Positions 3,678-51,632 of a stretch of DNA of 64,000 nt are shown piece by piece. The DNA is taken from positions 1-64,000 of IMG/VR virus record IMGVR_UViG_3300050821_006280; one strand, written 5' to 3'. A program made the translations under genes and the position numbers. Position 1 is the first letter of the stretch; the number at the start of each line of letters is the position of its first letter. Origin of the DNA: a virus. The notes beneath the pieces were generated by a model. The model was not told where the DNA came from and did no database searches. It saw only the letters and a list, made by a program, of their open reading frames with translations.

Positions 3678-6600
3678 TCACGGCACAACGCGAACAACGA
3701 TATCATCCAAGAACCATCCTTCGTATGTCGGATCAACGACTACGCTCGTAACGGTGTCGAAGTTCCACCTTACTCTGAATTGTCCAGCACCAACAACAGC
3801 TGTCGTTATATTGAGAACGATATATGCCCATTGGGCAGGAGTCGAATAACCGCTCCCAGCTCGCACTGACAGGCCAGTGGCGTCCAGGTTCCCCACTTGG
3901 TTTTTGTTGAAGTGCTGTAGAACGACGCCGACCGAGTTGACAATATCAACTGATGCCAAGTAGTTAGTCATGCCGGATTCGGCAAAGAAGTAGTGCCAAA
4001 ACTCAGCTGTCACTGTGGTCGCTGCGCTAACTGGTCCGATCAAGGGCGAAGACAAAGACCCCGCATTCGGCCTGGCGCCAAGATCAATTCGATTCTGGAA
4101 CGGAGTGTTCGGGTCGGTGATTCCATATGCAAACAATGCCGATCCAGAAGGCTTCAATCCAGCGGCCAAGAAATAGCTCTCGCCGGATGGTCTGGTCTGG
4201 CTTACATGCCAAAGGCCCGTCCCCAGCCAACTATTCGCCAGTGGCGACGTTCCATCGACGTGCTCCTCCAAGATGAACGGAGTCACCTGGTTCGAGGTCG
4301 ATGTCGCCACCATCTGATCAAACCCGTTACCCGTTCCACCTGTAGTGGTTCCTGGAGTCGCTAACGCATCCGCTGTCCATTCTTCTGCATCATCGTAAAG
4401 CGGCGCGAAAGACACGGGATCCAGGTTGTCTTCTTTGATCGAGCTGGATGCCATAAATGCTGGAAACGTCGCGATACCTGGCCCCGGATCGTAGACGAAT
4501 TGTGCGAAGCGAATATGGACCGGCACCAGCGGCTTGAGTCGGTTCGTCAGTCTGGTTCCAGGATCATCAGCCAAGGCCGCTGGATCGGCCAGGATGGCAT
4601 CTGGGGTCATGAGCACGCGGATAATGCTCGCCCGGCACCAATCGCACTCAGGGATGATATTGGGTACGTAGCTGATGTAGATCGATGTCCCCTGGACAGG
4701 AATCACCGCAGTTACCAGCTCGATGTTCAGACGGGTCCCATCCCAGGCCATCGACTCGATCCATGCCGAGGTCCCGTCGCTAAATGTCACTTCCCAGTTT
4801 CCCTGCTGGACCGGCGCAAGCAGCGGCTCATCGCCAGCGTAGGGACCCGACAGATTAGTCATCACCCTGACGCGATGACCAGTGAACCCCGTGTATTGCG
4901 GGCCGAAATTCTGTACTGCGGGAGTACCAGAGATTATCGTCGGAATTGTCGCCGCTAACGGTACGGCTCTCCACGTAACCGTACCAGCTCCAGCAACAGG
5001 AGTATTCGGAGCGAGCACCTCGAACGAATACTGGGTATTGCTTAGGAGCTGGAAATTCTCTACCTTGAACGAGTTCGCCGCCACATCAACGAATACTGCC
5101 TGAGGGAATGCGAGCGAGCGATTCATCTGCCCCGCATTCGGGGTGACTACGACGCTGTTCCTAAAATCCGTCCCCTCAGTCCGAATGAAGGTAACGGAGT
5201 TAACCGTCACATTCTGGATCAAGTCTGGGAACGTTGGACTGAAATCAAACAGATCAGTCGTAACGAAATCTGCTGGAATCTCATCCATTACAGCTCGTCG
5301 CGGATCAATATCAGTGTAGTACCCGGTGAATGACACCGCCTGCTCAAGTTTTAGTGGACTGACAGCACCAATAGTCGCCAAGACGATCGCTGTTTCAGCA
5401 ATTGTCGACGATACTGTTGCCGTGAAGACTCCGCTCCCATTTGTTATTCCACTCGTGGCAGAAAATGTTAGACCCAGATCTTGCGTCGATAGCGATACAG
5501 GCTGGCCGACAATAGGATTATTAGTGTTATCAAGAACAGTTACCGTAAGCGTTATGGTTGCAACGCCATCAGCCAATGCCGATGGAGGCGAAAAAGTAAA
5601 TGTCGAATGCCCGCTCCTCGATGGCAACGTGAGCGACGATCTGTTTCTCGGAATGACGATATTAAAGACATTGATTACCGGCAGAAGGGGCACCCAGTAC
5701 GAGGCGATCCGATAAAGTCCGAAGGAGCGTACGAAGAATCCCGCAATCGCCCCCATGTACTTGTAGCCATCCGCGGAGCCCTTGATATCCCAGAGCTGGA
5801 ACGAATGGTTGACAAACGAACGTTGAAAAGGAATCGGATCGTGACGATCTATCTCGACAGCGAAATCGGACCCCAAGATTGCCAGAATGTGCTGTGAATT
5901 AACTGTTCCGTCTTCTGGGTACGAAACAGATATCGAGAGATTGTCAGCAATCCCCGCATCCTTCGTGTACAGCACAATCGTACCCGTCGAGAAGTTGACC
6001 GTGCTCCCATTCCCTAGATCACCAGTCAACTGACCCGTCGGCGTGAATACACCGACCCGAGGAGTAGCCCCCTCGGTCCACCGAACGGTTGTCGGTTTCT
6101 CAGCAAGATCTGGTGCTGAGAGAGTGAAGATGTATGGAGGAGCAGTCACTCCATCAGCGACGTGCCCTGCCGCATATTGTCCGGCATTTGGTGTCTCAAC
6201 GATCGGGATCCGGGTGTACGTCAAAGTGATTGAAAGATTGTCTGCTGTCTTGAAGTCTTTGGTATAGACAGTGATCAATCCGGTCAGAAAGTTGACCGAG
6301 CTGCCGAGCCCAAGATCCCCGTTTGGTTGGCCCTTGTTGTTGAGACTACCTGCTTTAGCAGCTCCCGATTCCCTCCACGTTATCTGAATCGCATTGGCAG
6401 CAATGGGCGGGAAGGCAACGGTAAAAATATATGGCGGGGCTGTTGTTCCATCGTTGACATGTCCAGCCTGATACTGACCAACGATTGGATTTTCGTTGAA
6501 AACAAGCGCGCCAGAGACCATGGGAACCGTCTCTTGAGCAGCCTGAGAGATATTGCTGACAATGATATTCTTTGCGGTCGCCATCCCTGTGAATGGATCA

Positions 6601-40825: not shown

Positions 40826-42856
40826 TTACCCCGTGAGAAACGGCATAAAAAAGTTCGATGGCTCTACAATTTCGCGCTGTTGATCAACCATCGGATCTCC
40901 ATACTGAGAGATGCCTCTAACGATACCCATAGGTGCACCACGATATTTCGTCGTCAGAGAATACACGACGCCAGCGAGCGCATCGGACACGTCCTTAGAT
41001 CCGAGTCTCGGGTGATCGACCTTGTTCCGTATCCTGTCATGTTGCAGAGCGCGAAGTTCTTTGAGAACAGGCTCATATCTGTACATCATCAATCTATTTT
41101 CGTAGATAGCAGCCTTGAGTGTGTCATAGGCATCCATCGGCTTATCGACAGACACCCGTTCTGCTTCGATCCCTTGTGTTGTAAAAATCTGGAGAGACGC
41201 AGCCGAGTTATATTGATCCATAGAGAGATATCCGACCGCGAATCCGTGTTGCCTCATCTGATGGACCAGTCCTCTAACTTGCGCCTGATCGATTTCCCCG
41301 CCAATGGGCGGAATGATTCTCAACATCAGGTCGATCCAAATGATCGGAGCAGGCTCCGTATATGTCTCGCCAGTCTCCATGTTCCGTCGCTGAACATTTT
41401 TGAATCCCACCACGCAGCCACAGCAAAAACCAGTTGCGTCACTTGTAAGAGATGGGTCGATATGGACATGCCGCGTAGTGCCAGGATGGAATTTCGGAGC
41501 CCACCCATCGAATAATTCGGCCCCATCGCGTACCCTTACCTGGCTTGCAACCCGGTCCCACAGGAACTTGCCACTACCTTTCTGATCCCATTCCTCTACT
41601 GAAAATGGATGTTGATGTGGCGAATCGCTAAGCGAAAGACACTTTTCGAGAAGATCACGCTGCTGAATGAACGGGCTGATCGATACGGTTTCAACACCAG
41701 CAACGTCTCGAATGGACCCTTCTAGATCTGCCTCGAAGTCTTTGCGAAAGTCTTCTGGTACCGAGATGATGATGACACTGTCAAACTGACCGCTCTCCTT
41801 CAGCTTTTCACGGACTGGCTCGACTTCCTCGTCCTTCAAAATGCGTGATGGAACCGTCTCGTTACCGACCAATACGTGGAATGTCTTCTGCCCGTAAGCT
41901 TCCCGCTTTACGTCCCACATAGCGTAATCGCGGACAAAGACCTCGGGGTCATCCTTTGAGTCCCGAATCCTCTTCGCAGTAAAGTCTTCTTTCGTGCGCT
42001 TCGATGACACTACGATCATGAGGCCCGGCATACGGCCGCCTCTCATGAAGCGGGACTTCATACGTCGGACTAGCTGATCGTATAGCGCTTGTGCTTTATC
42101 TCTGTTGCCCCATCTTTCGTTTGCTGACGCTCCACGCTTGAGATTCTCGAAAAAGTTACCTTCGTCCATGATGCCGCCAAAGACGTTCAAACCCAGGGCA
42201 GCCGTATCAGTGGATGCTCGCGGAGCGACCCAGACGTTGTGCGGGAATCGAATTTCGCGTTTCGTTACCTCGAACGGGAAATTCTCCATAAAATATGGGG
42301 ACTGCTTGATTTTCGTGACAATATTCTCGAACACAACCTTCATCGCCAGCTGTTCACTGACGGAGATTGCGATCAGAGCAATGTTGGTGTCTTTAGCAAT
42401 ACCAAAGCTACGGTGTGGATCGCGAAGACAAGAGATCTCGTACAACACTCGGATCAATGCGATCGATGCAAAGAAGGTTTTTCCCCAACCGATCGATCCA
42501 GTGAGAATAGCCTCCCTGTAGCCACCATCAAAAAGCTCTTTAAGATCCTCGACTAACTGAGGATACAGGTTGTCGCATGTGGTGCCGAGGTAATAGGGGT
42601 CCTTGATGAAAGTCTCGATATCCACCATTGGGCGGAGGTATTCTCCGTCGCTGAGCGCATCGTAGATGCGAACTGGACCACCCCCGGTCTGAGCCTCAAT
42701 CGGACTTCGCATCGCAGGATCGCCCATCTCTCGAATCGTGAGAACAAGCGCCTCCTGCTCGGACGGAGATAGCTTCTGAAACTCCTTGAGAAGCATCGAA
42801 AGATACTCCTCGTTTGTCCTCTCAGAATGTACCCGGCCCCCTTTGTCCTTGATCAC
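40826..42856 (-). CDS. terL: Terminase large subunit
   Basis: Walker A GSIGWGKT, Walker B GIMDEG, nuclease HVHIDPS...DHP..GSKDVSDA. Confidence 0.93.
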   Translation of the reverse strand: MIKDKGGRVHSERTNEEYLSMLLKEFQKLSPSEQEALVLTIREMGDPAMRSPIEAQTGGGPVRIYDALSDGEYLRPMVDIETFIKDPYYLGTTCDNLYPQLVEDLKELFDGGYREAILTGSIGWGKTFFASIALIRVLYEISCLRDPHRSFGIAKDTNIALIAISVSEQLAMKVVFENIVTKIKQSPYFMENFPFEVTKREIRFPHNVWVAPRASTDTAALGLNVFGGIMDEGNFFENLKRGASANERWGNRDKAQALYDQLVRRMKSRFMRGGRMPGLMIVVSSKRTKEDFTAKRIRDSKDDPEVFVRDYAMWDVKREAYGQKTFHVLVGNETVPSRILKDEEVEPVREKLKESGQFDSVIIISVPEDFRKDFEADLEGSIRDVAGVETVSISPFIQQRDLLEKCLSLSDSPHQHPFSVEEWDQKGSGKFLWDRVASQVRVRDGAELFDGWAPKFHPGTTRHVHIDPSLTSDATGFCCGCVVGFKNVQRRNMETGETYTEPAPIIWIDLMLRIIPPIGGEIDQAQVRGLVHQMRQHGFAVGYLSMDQYNSAASLQIFTTQGIEAERVSVDKPMDAYDTLKAAIYENRLMMYRYEPVLKELRALQHDRIRNKVDHPRLGSKDVSDALAGVVYSLTTKYRGAPMGIVRGISQYGDPMVDQQREIVEPSNFFMPFLTG

Positions 42857-43632
42857 GGCGCACCAGGCGGCAACACCGGTGCAGATCCACCTTCGTTCTC
42901 GTTCCCCTCCGCATCGTCTATTGGCTTCGCATCGATCACGTCAGGTTGCTGAACGTCGCTAACTCTCCCCAGCACATCGACGACATCCAAGCTGGCCTTT
43001 GCTCCGAGCTGAAACAGACGCTCTGCAAGACCTAAGACCTTACGCCGCGAGTCTGGATCGGAAATGACCTTCCCAATGGAATCCTTGCCGTAACGCTCAG
43101 TAACTTCTGCGGCGACCTGGCCGGTGACTTCCATCGTTCCAAGCTGTCGTTTTACAAGCCCAAGGTCCATCTTCAGCTCAGCTGATTGCCGCAGGATCTT
43201 CATTGCAACGAAGACTTCTCTGCCCGTCGTCGCAAACAGCTTGCCCAGCTTTTTTTCGTTCTGAAAGTCGATCTGGATACGTTCTTCCTGAAGTTTGTAG
43301 AGCTTCTCTAGCTCATCCAGCTCGCTGATCCCGTCAGCTAGCTTTCTCGTAGCGTTACGAGCCACCAAAGAATTTGCCGAGACCATCGACAGCTCAGCTG
43401 CTGGAATCGTACCGCGGTAAGTATCAATGAGCTTCTTGATGTACGTGGCCGATAGGTCGGTCCACTCGCCAAACTCTTGCTGAATCGCCTTCGTCAAGGC
43501 TGGCGTCGTCCATCCAAGACGAAGCCTACGATCAATCTCGCTAAAACACTCAAGATCACCAAGCCGTCCCATCCCACCGCCGCCGCCACGGCTGATCGGA
43601 GTGATCCTTGGCTTTCTCGGCTCATCATTCAT
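42853..43632 (-). CDS. Putative terminase small subunit
   Basis: Helical ORF overlapping the terL start; N-terminal HTH-like region plus coiled coil. Confidence 0.6.
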   Translation of the reverse strand: MNDEPRKPRITPISRGGGGGMGRLGDLECFSEIDRRLRLGWTTPALTKAIQQEFGEWTDLSATYIKKLIDTYRGTIPAAELSMVSANSLVARNATRKLADGISELDELEKLYKLQEERIQIDFQNEKKLGKLFATTGREVFVAMKILRQSAELKMDLGLVKRQLGTMEVTGQVAAEVTERYGKDSIGKVISDPDSRRKVLGLAERLFQLGAKASLDVVDVLGRVSDVQQPDVIDAKPIDDAEGNENEGGSAPVLPPGAP

Positions 43633-43677
43633 CAGGAATGTCCTTACCCGATATAAATCGATCGGGTTATATAGACA

Positions 43678-43707
43678 ATCCTATATCAATAACGAGACTT
43701 ATCGCAA
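43678..43707 (-). promoter_or_regulatory. Sigma70-like promoter upstream of the terminase operon
   Basis: TTGCGA-N18-TAGGAT. Confidence 0.5.
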
Positions 43708-43755
43708 CCTGGCGCTAGGTAGGGGAGATCTTCGACGCAAGTGTCTGCGCGGAAG

Positions 43756-45108
43756 CTACTGCTGGGGAGGCATATCATCCGCGGGCTGTTCTTGGATGAT
43801 CGAAAGAAAATCAAATCCTTCATCGCTGATTTGGCCAATCATCGCATTGACATATTCGATGATATTGACGTTCGTAGGGCCATCTGCACCATACCCTCGA
43901 CGCAGAGGTACAAGGACATTGGATACAAACTCGATCGGTCTCTCCAAAACAGAACGAGATTCCATCTGGAGGTATGCCATCCTTGCATAGAAACCTGCGA
44001 TGCCCTGAAGAGGGATATCCAGAGCCGCCAGGACACGTCCAGCATGGAGGGCAATGTCGTCGCTAAGAGCTTCGCATACTTGATCAAACGTTACGAGTGC
44101 CTCCTGGACGTTTATCGGCGAAAGACTCTCTAGCAAAAAAGGAAGATCCCACGAGCTTGCTGGCTGAGCTGACGCAGCCCTGTCCAGTCCTGAGTAATTC
44201 TTCCTGCCCCAGCCCTTAGCCCGTTGGTTCGCATAGGCCTCAGCTGTCATTCCAGGATGCGGAAACGATAGCTGAAGATTCGGAATCACTAAACGATCGG
44301 TATTCATGTTGTACATGTAACTACTGAGCGGGCGCTCTTGTACGCCGAGTACGAAATCGATTGCATAGGCGCGATAGATGCTGTGGCGCAGCCGATCGCT
44401 TGACCGCGCCCACCTCTCTTGGTCTGAGACTCCAAGAGTTCCCCAGTATTCAACAAAATCATCCGCATCCGTGGGACAGAGCTGGAGTATTGCTGCCATC
44501 CCTAAACGCTCATCAATTTCGATAGGAGAAGTGCGCAGCTGGCGAGCCATGCGTTCACGAACCGCATCCGAAATAAGCGGGACGGGATCGATATCCCTCA
44601 CCACCAGTGGTGGTACTAGATCTTCGGACCCGAGGGCCTTTACAACCTCGTATGCAGCCTGCTCGCGACGTAGCAAGGCATAGTCTTCATCGAGCTGGTA
44701 CTCCTCACCCCACCGCTTCTGAAGGCCGTCTGATGGGTCCTCGAACTTGAGCCAACAGCTTCTGAGAGCTTCCCCGAGCCGCACGCGTGCCCAGAAGACA
44801 CCACCAGAGCCATCTAGCACCCTCTCTTCGACAAGCTCGATAGGAGCCTCTAGAAGCATCTCCCAGAGATCAGCCTCCGGCTGATTCCACGGAGGTGCTC
44901 CTGCGTCGCCATCGAACCGAACAGCTGGGAAAAGAACCATACCCGTGTGCGGCGAAATCGTTGGGTGCTCCGGTAGCTCAACTATGCCCTCCGCAGGAGG
45001 TTCCTGGCTTTGAGCTTCGATCTCGGTTGGGATTGGAGCTGGCGGGGAGTGGCTGAGAGTGCCGAAGACGTTGCTCAGCTCAGACAGCGGTCTCTTGCTC
45101 TGCGACAA
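43756..45108 (-). CDS. PI3/4K-HipA-fold kinase-like protein, probable pseudokinase
   Basis: GSGGVF, WLKFE, RREQAAYEVVKALG..LVPPLVVR; catalytic loop DFVLGVQERPLSS and LVIPN lack the usual Asp/Asn/Asp. Confidence 0.75.
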   Translation of the reverse strand: MSQSKRPLSELSNVFGTLSHSPPAPIPTEIEAQSQEPPAEGIVELPEHPTISPHTGMVLFPAVRFDGDAGAPPWNQPEADLWEMLLEAPIELVEERVLDGSGGVFWARVRLGEALRSCWLKFEDPSDGLQKRWGEEYQLDEDYALLRREQAAYEVVKALGSEDLVPPLVVRDIDPVPLISDAVRERMARQLRTSPIEIDERLGMAAILQLCPTDADDFVEYWGTLGVSDQERWARSSDRLRHSIYRAYAIDFVLGVQERPLSSYMYNMNTDRLVIPNLQLSFPHPGMTAEAYANQRAKGWGRKNYSGLDRAASAQPASSWDLPFLLESLSPINVQEALVTFDQVCEALSDDIALHAGRVLAALDIPLQGIAGFYARMAYLQMESRSVLERPIEFVSNVLVPLRRGYGADGPTNVNIIEYVNAMIGQISDEGFDFLSIIQEQPADDMPPQQ

Positions 45109-45379
45109 GTTCAGCCTCCGGGAGAAGTTCGATCAGTTCCGACGACTTCCCAAGGTACTTGAAAGCGGTGCGCACGTCATTCACCTGAGCAACGTACAAA
45201 GGGTTCATCGACGACCGAAGATCGTCATGAGCCGCCTGGAGAGAATCATATGGCAGCTCCTCCTGCGCGATCTTCCCGTCCGACATCAACCGCCTAACAG
45301 CGACCATCCCTTCGTCGTCGATGTAATAGACAGCCGAAACCTTTGAAAAATCCCCTGAATATCCAAACATCACCGTCAT
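45080..45379 (-). CDS. Small partner protein of kinase-like gene (99 aa)
   Basis: RBS AGGAG; overlaps the start of the downstream kinase-like gene. Confidence 0.65.
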   Translation of the reverse strand: MTVMFGYSGDFSKVSAVYYIDDEGMVAVRRLMSDGKIAQEELPYDSLQAAHDDLRSSMNPLYVAQVNDVRTAFKYLGKSSELIELLPEAELVAEQETAV

Positions 45380-45425
45380 CTGTTACCAGTCTCCTGGCCT
45401 ATTATACGAACGATAATCACACGGA

Positions 45426-46637
45426 TTACCGGCTTTGGTTCCCATGATCTGTCTGTGTTGCATCGTTCTGCCGGAATCTATCTGGTTGATTTATTGCGCG
45501 ATTGGCAAGCGTGCCTTCCAATCCATGAGTTAAAAGCTCATGCGCATTTCGTTGGATCAACGAGGCGTCATCGGGATGGATGCCATGTTGCCCAAAATGC
45601 TCTCCACGCACGTAGGAGTGTAGTTGAGCTTGGACCTCGGGAGGGAAATTCGTCCCCCACTGCATCCCGTTCTTGTCATACGCCAGCTTTCCCCCTGGCA
45701 AGAAGTGAGAACGGACGCTCTCCTTGCCATGCATCTCTCTCCACGCACGCTGCGCATGCGATTCGCCGCCGATATCGTTGTCGAAGAGAACTGGGTGCAC
45801 CTTCCCATTCTGTCCGCGGGACAAACGAATATTCCCACCGTGACCATCTGTCTGACTGTGAAGAACATGAGCGACGGCGCCGATCATTCGATGCTGATCA
45901 TCAACCGCATCAATATCCCCCTGGCTCGAATGAGAGAGATTTTCGCCTGGAGAAAATTCGACAACATGCGCCGGCTGGCCTGCATGCGACCTTGCCATCT
46001 TCAACTGCTTTTCAGGCGTATCACTCTCGTCGGGATATGGGTGGCGCTTCGTCAACTGTCCGTGACCATGAAACGTACCGACGAAATTCGGCGTACCCAT
46101 GTGATGAGCACCGACCGCAGATAGGAAGTCATAGAGATGGGCGTTCTTAGCCCCGATTCTCTCGGGCTGATGAGTTGGATCAATCGTGGCCAACGGCTTC
46201 AAGATGGCCTGGTGACCGTTGCTCATTCGGGAATGAAAAACAGCATTCCGTGAGTCACCGAGATGTCGGACATTTTCAGCACTGGCTTGCTGATCGTTAT
46301 ATCGCTCCATGTGCTGCTGCTGGCGGATATGGCCATGCGGCAAATCTGGGCGCGTCTGCTGTGCAAGCGTCGGCTGCCCCGTGTCATGAGCCATAAATGG
46401 CTGTCGGACAGGCTGAATAGGTGATGCCATAGGCTCAACAGCAGGCGCTCCTCCCGGAACTCCCGTCGCAATTGCCTTCTTCCTAGCCTTTGGAGCCGCG
46501 GCATTTGTTCTAAAATCCGCCATTGGCGGTGCTGGCGCCTTTGGCTCTTTCCTTGGCATGTCCCGCAAATAGGAGAGATCTGGTGTTTCCTCGAACAATG
46601 CCGATACAGGCATTAGCGGCAACTTAGGCGCGCGCAT
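45426..46637 (-). CDS. PI3/4K-HipA-fold kinase, catalytic motifs intact
   Basis: LGDSRNAVF, AILKP, QTDGHGGNI (D-x-H-x-x-N), VLFDND; start reassigned to ATG 46637. Confidence 0.75.
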   Translation of the reverse strand: MRAPKLPLMPVSALFEETPDLSYLRDMPRKEPKAPAPPMADFRTNAAAPKARKKAIATGVPGGAPAVEPMASPIQPVRQPFMAHDTGQPTLAQQTRPDLPHGHIRQQQHMERYNDQQASAENVRHLGDSRNAVFHSRMSNGHQAILKPLATIDPTHQPERIGAKNAHLYDFLSAVGAHHMGTPNFVGTFHGHGQLTKRHPYPDESDTPEKQLKMARSHAGQPAHVVEFSPGENLSHSSQGDIDAVDDQHRMIGAVAHVLHSQTDGHGGNIRLSRGQNGKVHPVLFDNDIGGESHAQRAWREMHGKESVRSHFLPGGKLAYDKNGMQWGTNFPPEVQAQLHSYVRGEHFGQHGIHPDDASLIQRNAHELLTHGLEGTLANRAINQPDRFRQNDATQTDHGNQSR

Positions 46638-46917
46638 ACCCCATAACCTCGACGGACACACCAGGGCAGCAAGCCAGTTTTTGGCGTAGTAGCTCTAGTG
46701 GGGAGACAAGCATCTCCCTGGCCTTAATCTCTAGATCTTCTTGCGAAGGTACCAGCAACCCTTCCCAGACGCTGGATACAGCAATCTTGCCATCGAGCGT
46801 CTGCCAAGCATCGCAACCTTGATCCAGTATCATCTCGCCTCTGACGAGCTTCGCCCTGAATATACGAAGGCGTCTCGTATCACTGATCGCTGGCATCTTC
46901 TTCCTTGTCTTCCGCAC
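46624..46917 (-). CDS. Small partner protein (paralog of 48546-49016)
   Basis: DAWQTLDGKI...SPLELLRQKLA; overlaps both neighbours; start may be ATG 46896. Confidence 0.65.
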   Translation of the reverse strand: MRKTRKKMPAISDTRRLRIFRAKLVRGEMILDQGCDAWQTLDGKIAVSSVWEGLLVPSQEDLEIKAREMLVSPLELLRQKLACCPGVSVEVMGYARA

Positions 46918-48559
46918 GCATTTCAGCTGAGAAGTCGAACGTTCGGCCTACCACGTTCGACATCACCTCGTTCACATAGTCCTCAACTTCCATGAACTCA
47001 GCTTCAATCGGCGTTGGATCTATGCTTTCTGCCAGGGCGGTAAAGTAGTCGAGCACCAAGAATGGATTCCTCGCGAGCTGCTGGTGATGAGTCCACAGCA
47101 TCCCGACACGAGCAAGCATGCCAGCAATGCTCAGCAATGGAATCTGATGTTCCATAAGCGACCGCACAAGCTCTGGCGATCGGTCATTACGGAGGTGACG
47201 GACAGCTGTTACAGCGATCTCCTCATAGTCACGAAGCTCTTGGTCACCACCACGAGTAGCAACCATCATCACCGGATCGCTCCATAAGAGCGGAAACGCA
47301 TTGGCCTCCACTGGTGGATCAAGATAGGTCTGACCATACTTCGATCGCAGAAGCACAAGACCATGCGGATTGGGCAGCGACAGCTCGTTGTCTCTCAAGA
47401 CAATGGCATGTCGATTATTGATCCCACCTCCCCACCCAATGCTGCCGAATGTTCGATCTCCAGTCCAAAGGATGAAATCGAATACAGCAGCCCGCAAAAT
47501 CGCCATGCGTCGTTCTGTCGGCATCACTTCAAAAAGACGATTCAGAGCGTCGTTTTCTACCCCTTCTGGCTCCTCGAATAATTCATGGAACCACTTTTCT
47601 CCATCTATGCCATGAATTCCATCTACATAGAACTGCACAGCGGCATAGCCCTGGAGATGGCGGCGAATCTTGTCAGGCTGATCGCCAACCACACGAGAAA
47701 TTGACTCCTCGAAGCGTTGCTTCCTCTCGATCAGCTCGTCAGACATAATGGCATCGAGACCACCGAACTCATCATGACGGAGCACTGTCGGTGGCACGAT
47801 ATCGTCAAATCCAGATGCCTTGGCGATCTCATACGCTGCTGCGGCCCGACGAGCAAAACCACCTTCTTTTTGCTCAGCGTCATACAGGTCACCCCAGACA
47901 TCATAAAGGTACGGGTCGTTGAGACCTTCGATCTTCAGATATCCTTTATGGATGTACCCATCACCACCTTCGATCTTGACGAGCATACAACCCGTTGAGC
48001 TGCCAGCCACCCGGAACTGAGTCATCCTTCCCGTACGTAGCCGTCCAACTAATTCTGGCTCTGTAACGCCCCACAGCATCTGCTCGCCAGCAGTTACAGT
48101 GTTTGCAGGGACGTACATCGACAGCGGATTCGTTGCCCGCGCCGTCTTGTTATTTACATCGTAGCGACGACGGACCTCCGGCGGGACTGGGTCTTCTGCG
48201 TCTTTGCCGTCACCAAGCTCCCAGGCTAGGTCCAAAACCTTCACGCTCACGCGAGATGGTAGAGGCGCTTGAATCTGCTCCTGAGGAGACTGCGCAGCTG
48301 CTTGGTCAGAGGCAATCTGATCTGCCGGCTGTGGTTCCTCGTCAGGAACCTGTGACTGTTGAGTTGCTGGCCCACTCGCCGCCGGAAGCTCATGTTCCTT
48401 CCGTTGAGCATAACGATCGCCGGGAGCAGCCTTCTTCACGTGGAATGACTGCTCATACTCATACGTCTTGCCGTCAGGTCCCTTGCGCTTCAGCTTGCGA
48501 ATGACACGGTGAAGCCCTGCGGCCAGATCCTCAGACACCACCTTCTCACTCTGGCTCAT
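46880..48559 (-). CDS. PI3/4K-HipA-fold kinase-like protein (paralog of 43756-45108)
   Basis: GSSTG, YLKIE, RRAAAAYEIAKASG..IVPPTVLR, AAVFDFILWTGDRTFGS, VLRDNELS; start reassigned to ATG 48559. Confidence 0.78.
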   Translation of the reverse strand: MSQSEKVVSEDLAAGLHRVIRKLKRKGPDGKTYEYEQSFHVKKAAPGDRYAQRKEHELPAASGPATQQSQVPDEEPQPADQIASDQAAAQSPQEQIQAPLPSRVSVKVLDLAWELGDGKDAEDPVPPEVRRRYDVNNKTARATNPLSMYVPANTVTAGEQMLWGVTEPELVGRLRTGRMTQFRVAGSSTGCMLVKIEGGDGYIHKGYLKIEGLNDPYLYDVWGDLYDAEQKEGGFARRAAAAYEIAKASGFDDIVPPTVLRHDEFGGLDAIMSDELIERKQRFEESISRVVGDQPDKIRRHLQGYAAVQFYVDGIHGIDGEKWFHELFEEPEGVENDALNRLFEVMPTERRMAILRAAVFDFILWTGDRTFGSIGWGGGINNRHAIVLRDNELSLPNPHGLVLLRSKYGQTYLDPPVEANAFPLLWSDPVMMVATRGGDQELRDYEEIAVTAVRHLRNDRSPELVRSLMEHQIPLLSIAGMLARVGMLWTHHQQLARNPFLVLDYFTALAESIDPTPIEAEFMEVEDYVNEVMSNVVGRTFDFSAEMRAEDKEEDASDQ

Positions 48560-49016
48560 TTTCGCCTTCCAGAAGTTCCGTCCTGAACCAGCTTGCACGA
48601 GCCAATCGCTTCTCCAAGATTGCCAATGGAGAAAGATCCCTGGCCAGTGACGCATTCAAATATCGCTGCTTTGCTTGGGGCTCAAATAGCATCACAGCAA
48701 CCATCCCAGAGCCCTGGATCTGGCCAGCGTCATCCTGCCATGCGTCACCAAGGGGTGCTTCACCGGGCTCGTAATCTGGCCGGAGAGCGTAGACCATCAG
48801 GTGTCGACTATCGCCTACTGCCTGATCTTCTGTTGGTCCCGAATATTCATCCGGCTCTTGTTCCTCATCGGGCACGCTTTGCGGCTCTTGAGGCTGTTCC
48901 GATTGGTCTTGATCCTCTGGAGGCAAATCCTCAGGACCAGGCTCTTGCGGCGTGTCTGCCATTGCAGGATCCTGAGCTTCCCCCGAAGAATCAGCCGGCG
49001 CATCCATGTTAGCCAT
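48546..49016 (-). CDS. Small partner protein with acidic N-terminal tail
   Basis: DAWQDDAGQI...SPLAILEKRLA; abuts the ParB-like gene and overlaps the kinase start. Confidence 0.68.
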   Translation of the reverse strand: MANMDAPADSSGEAQDPAMADTPQEPGPEDLPPEDQDQSEQPQEPQSVPDEEQEPDEYSGPTEDQAVGDSRHLMVYALRPDYEPGEAPLGDAWQDDAGQIQGSGMVAVMLFEPQAKQRYLNASLARDLSPLAILEKRLARASWFRTELLEGENEPE

Positions 49017-49871
49017 TTACGCCCTCGCTGCGCCTGTCTTTCCGTTCGCCTTCTTCTCATCGAACGAATCAGCTGCCTTCTGAATCGCTTCTCCAATCAA
49101 TTCATTGATATCGACATTCGCCGTTCGGCACTTAGTCATGATCTTCTTCATTGCATCATGAACTTTCTTGGACATGGCGATATAGGTGTGTTCCTTGCCG
49201 CCCCATGCAAAGACCATGAAGTTGAACCTGATTGAATCCCCATGCTCCTGGAAGAGGTGCTGAATGATACGCTCCAGGTCATTGATGGTACGGGCTTCCT
49301 TGGCTTGTGCCTCAAACTGCTGAGCCATCTCAGGGGGAAGCGTCGCCTTCATCTCTTTCGAGATTTGCTTGATGATCTTCTTCAGCGGCGCATCGCTGGT
49401 ATATCCCATCATTCCAGCGACTTTATCCTTCCCGTACTTGTCCGCCATCTCTGTGTAGAGTTTGGCCATTTTTTCCGGGTTCATCTCGCCATGGATGATA
49501 TTGAGACGCAGGTTCTGGAGTTTTTGATAGTCGAGATCCTTCCACTTCGCGTTCTTGGGGACATCGACTGGAATCTTTTTTAGACCCAGCTCCTTAGCAG
49601 CCTGCCAACGATGATGTCCGCCGATGATGATGTGATGTTCCCCATCCTCGTGAGGGACAGCGATAACTGGATCGATGAAACCGCATTCTGCGATGTTATC
49701 TTTGAGCTTCGCATACTTATCTGGCTTCATTTCATTTGGGTTATATTCCGTAGGGATCAGCTCATCTGGAGAGAGAATGATCCTGTAAGTATCCAGAAGA
49801 TCCTCTGCCTTGATCTCTGCTTCCCCGTTCTCGTCTCCCGCGGCGCGCTTTTGGTCATCCTGCTTATTCAT
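49017..49871 (-). CDS. ParB/Srx-like N-terminal domain protein
   Basis: YNPNEM...GFIDPVI...IIGGHHRWQAAKELG. Confidence 0.85.
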   Translation of the reverse strand: MNKQDDQKRAAGDENGEAEIKAEDLLDTYRIILSPDELIPTEYNPNEMKPDKYAKLKDNIAECGFIDPVIAVPHEDGEHHIIIGGHHRWQAAKELGLKKIPVDVPKNAKWKDLDYQKLQNLRLNIIHGEMNPEKMAKLYTEMADKYGKDKVAGMMGYTSDAPLKKIIKQISKEMKATLPPEMAQQFEAQAKEARTINDLERIIQHLFQEHGDSIRFNFMVFAWGGKEHTYIAMSKKVHDAMKKIMTKCRTANVDINELIGEAIQKAADSFDEKKANGKTGAARA

Positions 49872-50088
49872 CCAACACCTCGACGATCGATGTAAGACGA
49901 TTCGCCGCTAGCATCAGCTCGCCGCGCAGCTGCATCTCGAAGACCTCCGCATCCAAGTCATTGGCCGGAAGATCTTCGCCGGGGATTCCCTCTTCAAGTC
50001 TCTCTTTCCATTTGGAAATGATGTCAAGGATCTGTGACATCTCTGATCGAAGGGTCTCCGCCCGCAGCTTCATCGCCATGACGGCCAT
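49864..50088 (-). CDS. Hypothetical protein
   Basis: Overlaps the ParB-like start and supplies its RBS GAGG. Confidence 0.55.
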   Translation of the reverse strand: MAVMAMKLRAETLRSEMSQILDIISKWKERLEEGIPGEDLPANDLDAEVFEMQLRGELMLAANRLTSIVEVLDE

Positions 50089-50138
50089 CCTATCCCAAAA
50101 TCTGATCGCTGTTGTCCAGTAAAGAGAAATCGTCGGTA

Positions 50139-50939
50139 TTACTTGGCGATTTCTCCCACGCTAACAAACAAGATCGGTTCTTCGATGTGGATTTCTACGA
50201 CTTCAGAAGTATCCGAAGATATCGTTCTCCAGATATCCTCGGTCAAAAGCACTGGTCGATTTTTGGAAAATGCAGCAACGATCCAAGACCTGGTATGACG
50301 ACGACGATCCCAACAGCGCTTGCACAGCCCATCTCCAGAATGCCGCTCGCGCTCGCCAGTGCCACTAGCACTGCACTGAATGCACCTGTCGATGTCGTAT
50401 TGGCGAGACCACTTCCTCTTCTCGTTCTTTAGATACTCGATGATTTCATGAACCTGGTCATCGGTAATCATGTACTTCCGTAGGCCATAGCGTTTCCAGG
50501 TCTGACCTATCGCATCGCGCGCCCGACGAATCTGACGCCAGTCATAACCAGTTTCTCGCTCGATACGACCACGTGTAAATGTCCCCTGCGTCGGTGAGAA
50601 CCCAAGTTCATAACAACGACGTTCGATTGCTACGCGGTTCCGCCGAGGAAGAAGATCCATCAATTCAAAAATCGACAGATGCCCAACATTCTTGACAAGT
50701 ACTAGATCTTCCTCTCGGCTCCACGGATAGGTTACACGCCCTGGCCTACAACCGGCGCGACGACCCTTTTCCTCTCTCAGCTTGAGAACACTTGCTTTGA
50801 ACCGAACCACGGACACGGTCTTGTTCAACGCCTTGGCCACGTCGGCATCACGCATCGTGCCCCATAGCTCTCTAAGCTTGGTCAGCTCATCCTCCGTCCA
50901 GGTGCTGCGCCTACCAGAAGCCCGGAGTTTGAATCTCAT
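50139..50939 (-). CDS. DNA-binding protein with two Myb/SANT-like repeats and a C-terminal Zn finger
   Basis: WTEDELTKLRELW and WSREEDLVLVKN repeats; CIQC...H..GLCKRC. Confidence 0.65.
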   Translation of the reverse strand: MRFKLRASGRRSTWTEDELTKLRELWGTMRDADVAKALNKTVSVVRFKASVLKLREEKGRRAGCRPGRVTYPWSREEDLVLVKNVGHLSIFELMDLLPRRNRVAIERRCYELGFSPTQGTFTRGRIERETGYDWRQIRRARDAIGQTWKRYGLRKYMITDDQVHEIIEYLKNEKRKWSRQYDIDRCIQCSASGTGERERHSGDGLCKRCWDRRRHTRSWIVAAFSKNRPVLLTEDIWRTISSDTSEVVEIHIEEPILFVSVGEIAK

Positions 50940-50949
50940 CTTGTCGCCG

Positions 50950-50978
50950 ATCCTATACCAGCATATCGGTGAGCGCAA
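50950..50978 (-). promoter_or_regulatory. Sigma70-like promoter
   Basis: TTGCGC-N17-TAGGAT, 10 nt before ATG 50939. Confidence 0.5.
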
Positions 50979-51056
50979 ATACTAGCGTATCGCCGTTAAA
51001 CTACCACGGACGAACTTCTGATCGTTTTATCTGTAAAAGAGGAAGGGTTGTGGTGA

Positions 51057-51632
51057 TTAAGGAAGCTGATCTTGATACGAGTCGAGAAGATCTTTTGTTG
51101 ATAATGGCTCGCCAGCCATGACCGCAAGACAAGCCTTCCATGCCCATTCAGCCTGAAAAGCTAGAGGCGCAAATTGGACATGCCAGAAATCGGCAACCTC
51201 CCTCTCCTGGTCCGTGGCGAATGCCAGGAGCGCTGCATCTTCCGTAGTCGGCCAGTGGTCGCCCATTATCTTCAGCGCCTCAAGTGCCATCAGATTGCAC
51301 TGAGCAATGAATGGCGCCTTATTTGGCTTTGCCGTGATTTTCGGATCGCCTAGCTCATAGGCTTCGATTCCGTTCAGGCAGCGTCCATCCTTCTGTTCTG
51401 AGAAGTAGACCTTCTTCCAGAATTGGATAGCTCGATCGACCTTATCCCACGGCGTCGGGACTCGTTGAGCGATGACCTTACGGGTCTCAGAGTCTTTTTG
51501 ACGTTGGATGTTTTCGAGGATCTTGGCGACATCATCAGGCGTCTGTACGTCGACCTTGTATTGCGGCTTTAACTTCTCCAGTCGCTGAGCAATCTTCTCC
51601 TGGGTGAGCGAATCTGTTTCCTGATCCTTCAT
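51057..51632 (-). CDS. Hypothetical protein
   Basis: ATGA overlap with the upstream gene; RBS GAGGAG. Confidence 0.65.
   Translation of the reverse strand: MKDQETDSLTQEKIAQRLEKLKPQYKVDVQTPDDVAKILENIQRQKDSETRKVIAQRVPTPWDKVDRAIQFWKKVYFSEQKDGRCLNGIEAYELGDPKITAKPNKAPFIAQCNLMALEALKIMGDHWPTTEDAALLAFATDQEREVADFWHVQFAPLAFQAEWAWKACLAVMAGEPLSTKDLLDSYQDQLP

Follow-up and report, generated by a model that had tools for sequence, protein, structure and literature searches.

Split HipA systems of the HipBST type combine a kinase, HipT, with HipS, a homolog of the HipA N-terminal subdomain that inhibits HipT (PMC10627512, PMC9325769), and this inhibition is exerted through an inserted conserved Trp (PMC10627512). 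Among phages, the gene for a HipA-family kinase sits between those for portal and capsid in 'Gratiaviridae', and according to a 2021 survey only two phage protein kinases, T7 gp0.7 and the 933W kinase, had been characterised (PMC8008677). MuF proteins are phage head components whose fused enzymatic domains are thought to enter the host (PMC5512222), and a survey of MuF toxins makes no mention of a kinase (PMC5576092). Here we describe a six-gene cassette in positions 1 to 64,000 (64,000 nucleotides, the whole stretch analysed and hereafter the window) of the IMG/VR virus record IMGVR_UViG_3300050821_006280, which comprises 109,558 bases and is estimated to be 68% complete. The cassette is an operon of six open reading frames (ORFs) on the minus strand, 49016-43756, lying between a ParB gene and the terminase genes, in which genes for three small proteins (S1 to S3) alternate with genes for three kinase-like proteins (K1 to K3) in the order S1-K1-S2-K2-S3-K3.

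In an uncultured clade of large T4-like myoviruses, the cassette forms a fixed core module. Phage kinases of the HipA and PI3/4-kinase superfamily are known already, and what is distinctive here is the fixed array of one predicted kinase and two probable pseudokinases, each with a small partner of its own. The three consecutive two-gene units that a preliminary description had picked out in this DNA are all present as minus-strand ORFs, as follows (lengths in amino acids, aa).

S1: 48546-49016, minus strand, 156 aa; small partner 1, from the ORF list and homology to S2; its ortholog precedes K1 at every locus
K1: 46880-48559, minus strand, 559 aa; kinase fold of the PI4KII/HipA superfamily, paralog of K3; N-terminal arm of ~165 aa
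S2: 46624-46917, minus strand, 97 aa; small partner 2, HipS-like predicted fold
K2: 45426-46637, minus strand, 403 aa; predicted PI3/PI4K-like atypical kinase; proline-rich N-terminal arm of ~120 aa
S3: 45080-45379, minus strand, 99 aa; small partner 3, a sequence family of its own; its ortholog is always directly upstream of K3 and overlaps it
K3: 43756-45108, minus strand, 450 aa, TTG start; PI4KII-like fold

As had been described, each small gene overlaps the kinase-like gene that follows it, by 14 nucleotides (nt) for S1-K1, 14 nt for S2-K2 and 29 nt for S3-K3, and K1 and S2 overlap by 38 nt. The cassettes of relatives likewise have overlaps of 4-44 nt, or abutments, and these overlaps in the window and its relatives argue for translational coupling and co-production of the encoded proteins. 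A longer version of K1 starting at the ATG at 48655 was rejected, as homologs give it no support.

Conservation of the cassette

Nine loci in IMG/VR (L001-L009, of which 8 are distinct), on contigs of 25-200 kb, have the single gene order ParB-S1-K1-S2-K2-S3-K3-TerS-TerL-ORF277-portal, where TerS and TerL are the small and large terminase subunits, and nine further metagenome contigs (within L012-L024) keep this order as far as each contig reaches. The related viral or metagenome loci with the cassette order thus total ~17, and the pairing of small and kinase-like genes that had been proposed for the window is conserved in related genomes in this neighbourhood survey. Such identity of order at all loci implies that the arrangement is not due to chance. 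Identity across relatives is 29-48% for the S and K proteins, in comparison with 56-60% for TerL, 73-83% for the portal and 62-71% for the regulator-like ORF279; the S and K genes therefore diverge more quickly than the structural genes, and yet no member of the cassette is ever missing. No relatives of K2 or K3 were found in 50,697 GenBank phage records, and none of the K3 family in 185,579 reference prokaryote genomes. When 1.84 billion representative proteins were searched exhaustively by HMMER, a K2 profile gave only 79 matches, 30 of them strong.

Catalytic residues of the K proteins

Residues were counted at the alignment positions of the catalytic elements, with the mapping checked against a catalytically canonical relative. 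The K2 family was counted from alignments A2 and A8 (n=28), the K1 family has n=16 and the K3 family n=34.

beta3 Lys: K2 family K147, 28/28; K1 family Lys/Arg 10/16; K3 family Lys/Arg 30/34
catalytic-loop Asp: K2 family D264, 27/28; K1 family 12/16; K3 family 12/34 (E258 in the window K3)
loop Asn: K2 family N269, 28/28; K1 family 1/16; K3 family 3/34
metal-binding (DFG) Asp: K2 family D286, 28/28; K1 family 5/16; K3 family 9/34 (N277 in the window K3)

The full catalytic set of beta3 Lys, loop Asp and Asn, and metal-binding Asp is therefore found only in K2, and not in the K1 and K3 families, so that the three K proteins are not the equivalent kinases they had been taken for. In K2, the D-G-H-x-x-N loop contains Asp264 and Asn269, and the I-D-H-D motif contains Asp286. 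Retention of the four catalytic positions in 27-28 of 28 diverse K2 family members points to selection for catalysis, and we infer from sequence that K2 is a working, catalytically competent kinase. The window K3 has replacements at three of these positions (E258, S263 and N277), and retains a glycine-rich loop and the basic beta3 residue. In the K1 and K3 families the alphaC Glu and its neighbouring Lys, the Asp of L-D-F and the next Arg are all invariant. K1 and K3 are as such probable pseudokinases that may still bind nucleotide. The window K1 itself holds K209, D368 and D390, and K1 is probably either a pseudokinase or a weak kinase, whose window copy could have residual activity.

Fold and family of the K proteins

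Structure prediction for K3 from a 35-sequence alignment gave a confident model, with a predicted local distance difference test score (pLDDT) of 83.1 and a predicted template modelling score of 0.84. The model is a bilobal atypical kinase fold of PI4KII-like type, with PI4KIIalpha (PDB 4hnd, 4pla) as the closest structure at ~13% sequence identity, followed by Fam20 (14.8), actin-fragmin kinase (13.9), CtkA (12.9) and CotH (11.1), and, lower down, by HipA (10.8), MavQ (10.6) and HipT (10.1). The HipA structure covers the K3 model only from HipA residue 99 onwards. Among the neighbours of the model in BFVD are phage proteins of the 'head morphogenesis' and portal fusion kinds, along with a PI3K/PI4K-domain protein of a haloarchaeal virus.

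By sequence these similarities are faint. The window proteins give no match to PF00454, although two homologs of K2 and 11 of the 35 of K3 match it just below threshold at profile positions 133-179, which hold the catalytic and activation loops, the best of them reaching 26.5 and 25.7 bits where the cut-off is 27.1. Searches of PDB sequences with K3, K2 and their profiles returned only designed helical repeats, or nothing. The preliminary description had assigned all three K proteins to the PI3/4-kinase and HipA superfamily with SCO1664-like motifs. This kinase-superfamily fold is right for K1 and K3 and, judged by sequence, very likely for K2. The likeness to SCO1664 (TIGR03843) is weak, K1 scoring 17.3 bits and K3 13.3 bits against an NCBIfam cut-off of 172.4, and is limited to the alphaC motif A-A-Y-E..K-A.G..V-P-P. 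By sequence, the window proteins match neither HipA_C nor HipA_2.

Each K protein had also been credited with a long disordered N-terminal arm. This holds for K3, in which residues 1-41 have pLDDT < 50. Alignments of orthologs reveal conserved short motifs in the K arms. At K1 residues 8-10 (window 48530-48538), a hydrophobic-x-Glu triplet followed by Leu/Phe is present in 11 of 16 K1 orthologs and resembles a T4 prohead-protease site, and it is followed in the arm by a conserved basic motif of ~45 aa. A T4-type Leu/Ile-x-Glu cleavage site was also considered in the arms of K2 and K3 and rejected, the Glu being kept only in the closest relatives.

The small partner proteins

S1 consists of an acidic low-complexity N-terminus of ~65 aa and a domain of ~90 aa of the S1/S2 family, in which a Trp within an A-W-Q motif is near-invariant. 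We note that the N-terminal stretch (residues 1-65, 48822-49016), which is strongly acidic and rich in Pro, Glu and Gln, is otherwise seen only in L001, S1 in the other relatives being ~100 aa long. A confident model of S2 (pLDDT 87.6) was obtained from an 18-row alignment of S1 and S2 sequences, in which a long beta-hairpin is followed by a short strand, then by two helices and by one last strand. Foldseek found no PDB match to this model at E 0.001 or better. When 48,161 chains were ranked against the model, two HipS entries and two HipA N-terminal subdomain entries were among the top 10: the top matches are both HipS structures, with the whole HipS chain covered, and the HipA subdomain ranks sixth (4pu3_A, residues 8-109) and tenth (5k98_A, residues 2-107). 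The HipS/HipT-like design that had been proposed for the cassette thus holds weakly, in the ranking of the S2 model and in the order of S before an overlapping K, and lacks a Foldseek match. Prediction of a complex of K2 and S2 (alignments A2 and A4), run without controls, gave an interaction score from aligned errors (ipSAE) of 0.00 in both runs, which speaks neither for nor against binding. Look-ups of S3 and S2 in the ESM Atlas gave no usable lead, the Atlas models being poor (pLDDT 0.61 and 0.53), and library scans found no helix-turn-helix (HTH) match in S1-S3.

Relationships within the cassette

The cassette contains two pairs of paralogs, both of them seen in the preliminary description: BLASTP aligns K1 with K3 at E 1e-12 (25% identity, 388 columns) and S1 with S2 at 6e-5, and hhalign gives S1 and S2 a probability of 98% (E 1e-13). 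BLASTP detects no similarity of K2 to K1 or K3, and the K2 profile matches the K1 and K3 profiles weakly (E 0.0015 and 0.017), in alignments that are topologically right, with alphaC motif on alphaC motif and catalytic loop on catalytic loop. No relation of S3 to S1 or S2 is detectable by sequence or profile. A search for further S-like domains in the rest of the window, in the loci and in all the fetched proteins found none, and no S-K fusion was seen.

Since S1 resembles S2 but K1 resembles K3, with K2 very distant and S3 unrelated by sequence, the array is not made of three copies of one unit, and the earlier proposal of a tandem triplication is not supported in the form in which it was made. 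Positional orthologs (29-48% identity) resemble one another far more than the paralogs do, so that any duplication is older than the clade; a recent tandem duplication was rejected for the same reason.

Remote relatives and fusion to MuF

The remote matches of the K2 profile include true PF00454 members, with scores above the PF00454 gathering score (40.9 bits for P0101). Three of the remote matches, P0103, P0104 and P0105, join a MuF/head-morphogenesis part at the N-terminus to a C-terminal K2-like kinase, in which the V-K-P strand, the D-R-H-x-x-N loop and I-D-H-D are all intact. A similar fusion is related to K1 and K3. The unrelated viral contig L010 encodes TerL, a portal and a 625-aa MuF protein (4189-6066), whose C-terminus gives a match to the K1/K3 profile at a probability of 96.9% (E 1.4e-10), has the alphaC signature in common with it and keeps all the catalytic motifs (VYKP, DRHxxN, IDHG). 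The MuF domain (PF04233) is seen only in these distant relatives, P0103-P0105 and L010, and library scans gave no match to it on K1-K3. The neighbourhoods of P0105 and P0092 were looked for in IMG/VR and nothing was found.

Other architectures were noted among these proteins. P0104 (984 aa) has a phrog_13868/MuF-like N-terminus, Hint/intein modules and the C-terminal K2-like kinase, a layout that recalls a polymorphic toxin. Two giant metagenomic proteins, P0119 (1553 aa) and P0130 (1227 aa), carry 3-4 tandem PI3_PI4-kinase domains per chain, with an N-terminal HipA_C/HipA_2 domain in P0119 and an N-terminal NUDIX domain in P0130, and are a single-polypeptide parallel to the three-kinase array.

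Genomic context

Nearly all genes of the window are on the minus strand. The placing of the cassette between ParB and the packaging genes in the preliminary description is confirmed by the matches of its neighbours.

ParB-like gene: 49017-49871, minus strand; PF02195 1.8e-9, phrog_26387 2.3e-55; its stop abuts the S1 start; syntenic at all loci
259-aa gene in the small-terminase position: 42853-43632, minus strand; phrog_35167 (unknown function) 2.6e-11; always between K3 and TerL
TerL: 40826-42856, minus strand; phrog_2; tblastn matches TerL of Vibrio and Rhizobium phages at 35-37% identity

Further downstream are a T4-type portal, a head-maturation protease and a major head protein. The nearest cultured portals, at 34-36% identity, come from Flavobacterium phage immuto and Microcystis phage Mel-JY01, and this distance, together with the T4-type head genes, indicates that the virus is an uncultured, distant T4-like myovirus. 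The best-conserved nearby non-structural gene is that of a 279-aa D5-like regulator (ORF279, phrog_323; 50139-50978), at the 62-71% identity given above. No sigma-70-like promoter match was found in the 9 kb from 42500 to 51500, where shuffled sequences lead one to expect 6.2, which would fit a single long transcription unit or promoters other than those of sigma-70. The TerL gene is interrupted in L002 (10225-14607, three pieces) and L005 (10243-13878, two pieces) by insertions of ~1.1-1.5 kb each, which are probably inteins or homing-endonuclease introns, and the portal match of L009 (14961-17150), in two pieces ~1 kb apart, suggests another insertion; TerL of the window has no interruption.

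Discussion

On balance we lean towards an explanation that, taken as a whole, combines a coupled operon, a K2 kinase, K1 and K3 pseudokinases, HipS-like S proteins and a host-directed, head-associated effector role. The operon would encode three units of heterodimer type, in each of which an S protein of ~100 aa is made just before a K protein of the PI3/PI4-kinase, HipA and actin-fragmin kinase superfamily. K2 would be the phosphotransferase of the module, acting through Lys147, Asp264, Asn269 and Asp286. K1 and K3, keeping the nucleotide-binding features of the N-lobe minus the catalytic-loop and metal-binding residues, may serve K2 in the way that Fam20A serves Fam20C, be it as scaffolds, as allosteric partners or as adaptors for the substrate. 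S would take the part of HipS or the HipA N-terminal subdomain, as a detachable piece of the N-lobe that completes or gates the kinase. The module would then be a host-directed effector expressed alongside the head and packaging genes, which plausibly travels inside the capsid and enters the host together with the DNA. A head-associated, host-directed role is the best available reading, because catalytically intact distant relatives of both types of K protein are fused to MuF, and by analogy with these we infer capsid delivery.

Several observations weigh against this explanation. None of the six window proteins scores above threshold against Pfam, PHROG, NCBIfam or PADLOC, and the assignment of K2 as a kinase is based on its motifs, on profile matches to K1 and K3 that are weak (E 0.0015 and 0.017) and on transitive homology. 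Some K1 and K3 orthologs, as well as the window K1, retain both Asp residues, so that the term pseudokinase may overstate the case for some members, and atypical kinases can move catalytic residues. The absence of a MuF domain from K1-K3 counts against capsid delivery, and the MuF-kinase of L010 has no S-like neighbour, which implies that S is not a general requirement of such kinases.

Other explanations differ in where, and on what, the K proteins would act. There is a modest chance that they are unpackaged, late intracellular kinases that modify host or phage proteins during morphogenesis, for counter-defence or superinfection immunity, as has been proposed for the 'Gratiaviridae' kinase or T7 gp0.7. 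The operon is co-directional with and adjoins late genes, the divergence of S and K beyond that of structural genes is expected of host-interacting proteins, there is a precedent (PMC8008677), and library scans of the window proteins find no MuF or other known virion-anchoring domain; however, this explanation accounts neither for the recurrent MuF and portal fusions of relatives nor for the long N-terminal arms with their conserved short motifs. Rather unlikely is a capsid-loaded kinase machine in which K2, flanked by two ATP-binding pseudokinases and silenced in the producing cell by HipS-like S proteins, would be targeted by its N-terminal arm into a T4-like head, be injected along with the DNA, and phosphorylate host targets before phage gene expression, a delivery route independent of MuF for a regulated multi-subunit enzyme; the hydrophobic-x-Glu motif at K1 residues 8-10 is cited for this. 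We regard as very improbable the proposal that the proteins are non-enzymatic accessories of packaging and head assembly, kinase-fold scaffolds acting with ParB, TerS and TerL, in which the K2 motifs are a relic. Such a role would fit their invariant place between the ParB and terminase genes and the loss of catalytic residues in two of the three K families, but not the four catalytic residues kept in 27-28 of 28 diverse K2 family members, nor a divergence much above that of TerL and portal, nor the lack of any homolog in the 50,697 GenBank phages, which package DNA with related terminases.

The structural matches of S2 raise the question of three HipBST-like toxin-antitoxin or toxin-immunity pairs, with K as toxin and S as antitoxin, acting in superinfection exclusion, host shut-off or addiction. 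HipS antitoxins are the best structural matches of S2, HipS is homologous to the HipA N-terminal subdomain and inhibits HipT (PMC10627512, PMC9325769), the order of S before an overlapping K mirrors hipS-hipT, and the catalytic residues of K2 are kept. We nevertheless consider this unlikely. There is no HipB or HTH gene in the cassette or its flanks, ParB being the upstream neighbour; two of the three 'toxins' are catalytically degenerate and their partners are nonetheless kept; the strict synteny in a late operon is unlike the patchy, mobile distribution of toxin-antitoxin modules; there is no PADLOC, HipA_C or HipA_2 match; and K3 is much nearer to PI4KIIalpha than to HipA or HipT. It would likewise be somewhat surprising, and to a similar degree, if K2 were a PI4K-like lipid or small-molecule kinase that alters the host's membrane lipids, its envelope sugars or its signalling nucleotides instead of proteins. 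The next-best matches after PI4KIIalpha (Fam20, actin-fragmin kinase, CtkA, CotH and HipA) are protein kinases, and fold similarity does not fix the substrate. This last proposal concerns the substrate alone and is compatible with the kinase-pseudokinase effector that we favour.

Within a clade of environmental myoviruses of 100-200 kb, the cassette stands out as a strictly conserved module that has no annotation, and it would join three ideas known only separately, namely the split kinase of HipS/HipT type, the partnership of kinase and pseudokinase, and the delivery of effectors in association with the head. Should K2 be active and S gate K2, the HipS principle would extend past toxin-antitoxin systems, and the module would offer a tractable case of viral pseudokinase function. 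The MuF-kinase fusions suggest that kinases of PI3/4K type recur among the effectors delivered by phages, as a class that has not been described.

Comparison with known systems

The statement in the preliminary description that no equivalent had been described was too strong in view of the 'Gratiaviridae' kinase (PMC8008677), MuF-fused effectors (PMC5512222, PMC5576092) and the MuF-kinase fusions reported here. The HipA-family kinase of 'Gratiaviridae' (Benler et al. 2021, PMC8008677) is also encoded by phages in the late head-gene region, with host modification proposed as its function; likened to the cassette by description only, it consists of one gene, found together with an AAA ATPase and a glycosyltransferase, without an array of small partners and pseudokinases. 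With the PI4KIIalpha/PF00454 superfamily the cassette shares the bilobal fold, as seen in the K3 model, but at ~13% identity and with the window proteins below the Pfam threshold, and it differs further in that K1 and K3 lack the catalytic residues and that the phage proteins have separate small partners and long disordered N-terminal arms. The kinase-pseudokinase pair Fam20C/Fam20A may be compared as an analogy of mechanism only.

The HipBST or split HipA system (HipS and HipT; PDB 7ab3, 7vkb) differs in its HipB-type HTH repressor, which is not present in the six genes and flanks described here. In it, too, the gene for a protein of ~100 aa comes immediately before that of a kinase of this fold superfamily and overlaps it; the top matches of the S2 model are HipS structures and the HipA N-terminal subdomain, and HipA matches K3 only past residue 99. 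Among MuF (SPP1 gp7/Mu gp30) minor-head proteins with effector domains at the C-terminus, a group that takes in MuF polymorphic toxins and polyvalent proteins, P0103-P0105 and L010 have distant relatives of K2 and of K1/K3, respectively, as their C-terminal domains, and that of L010 adjoins TerL and portal. Unlike these, the window K proteins are free-standing and MuF-less, are accompanied by S partners and include two that are catalytically degenerate; like them, the window cassette lies at the head and packaging module.

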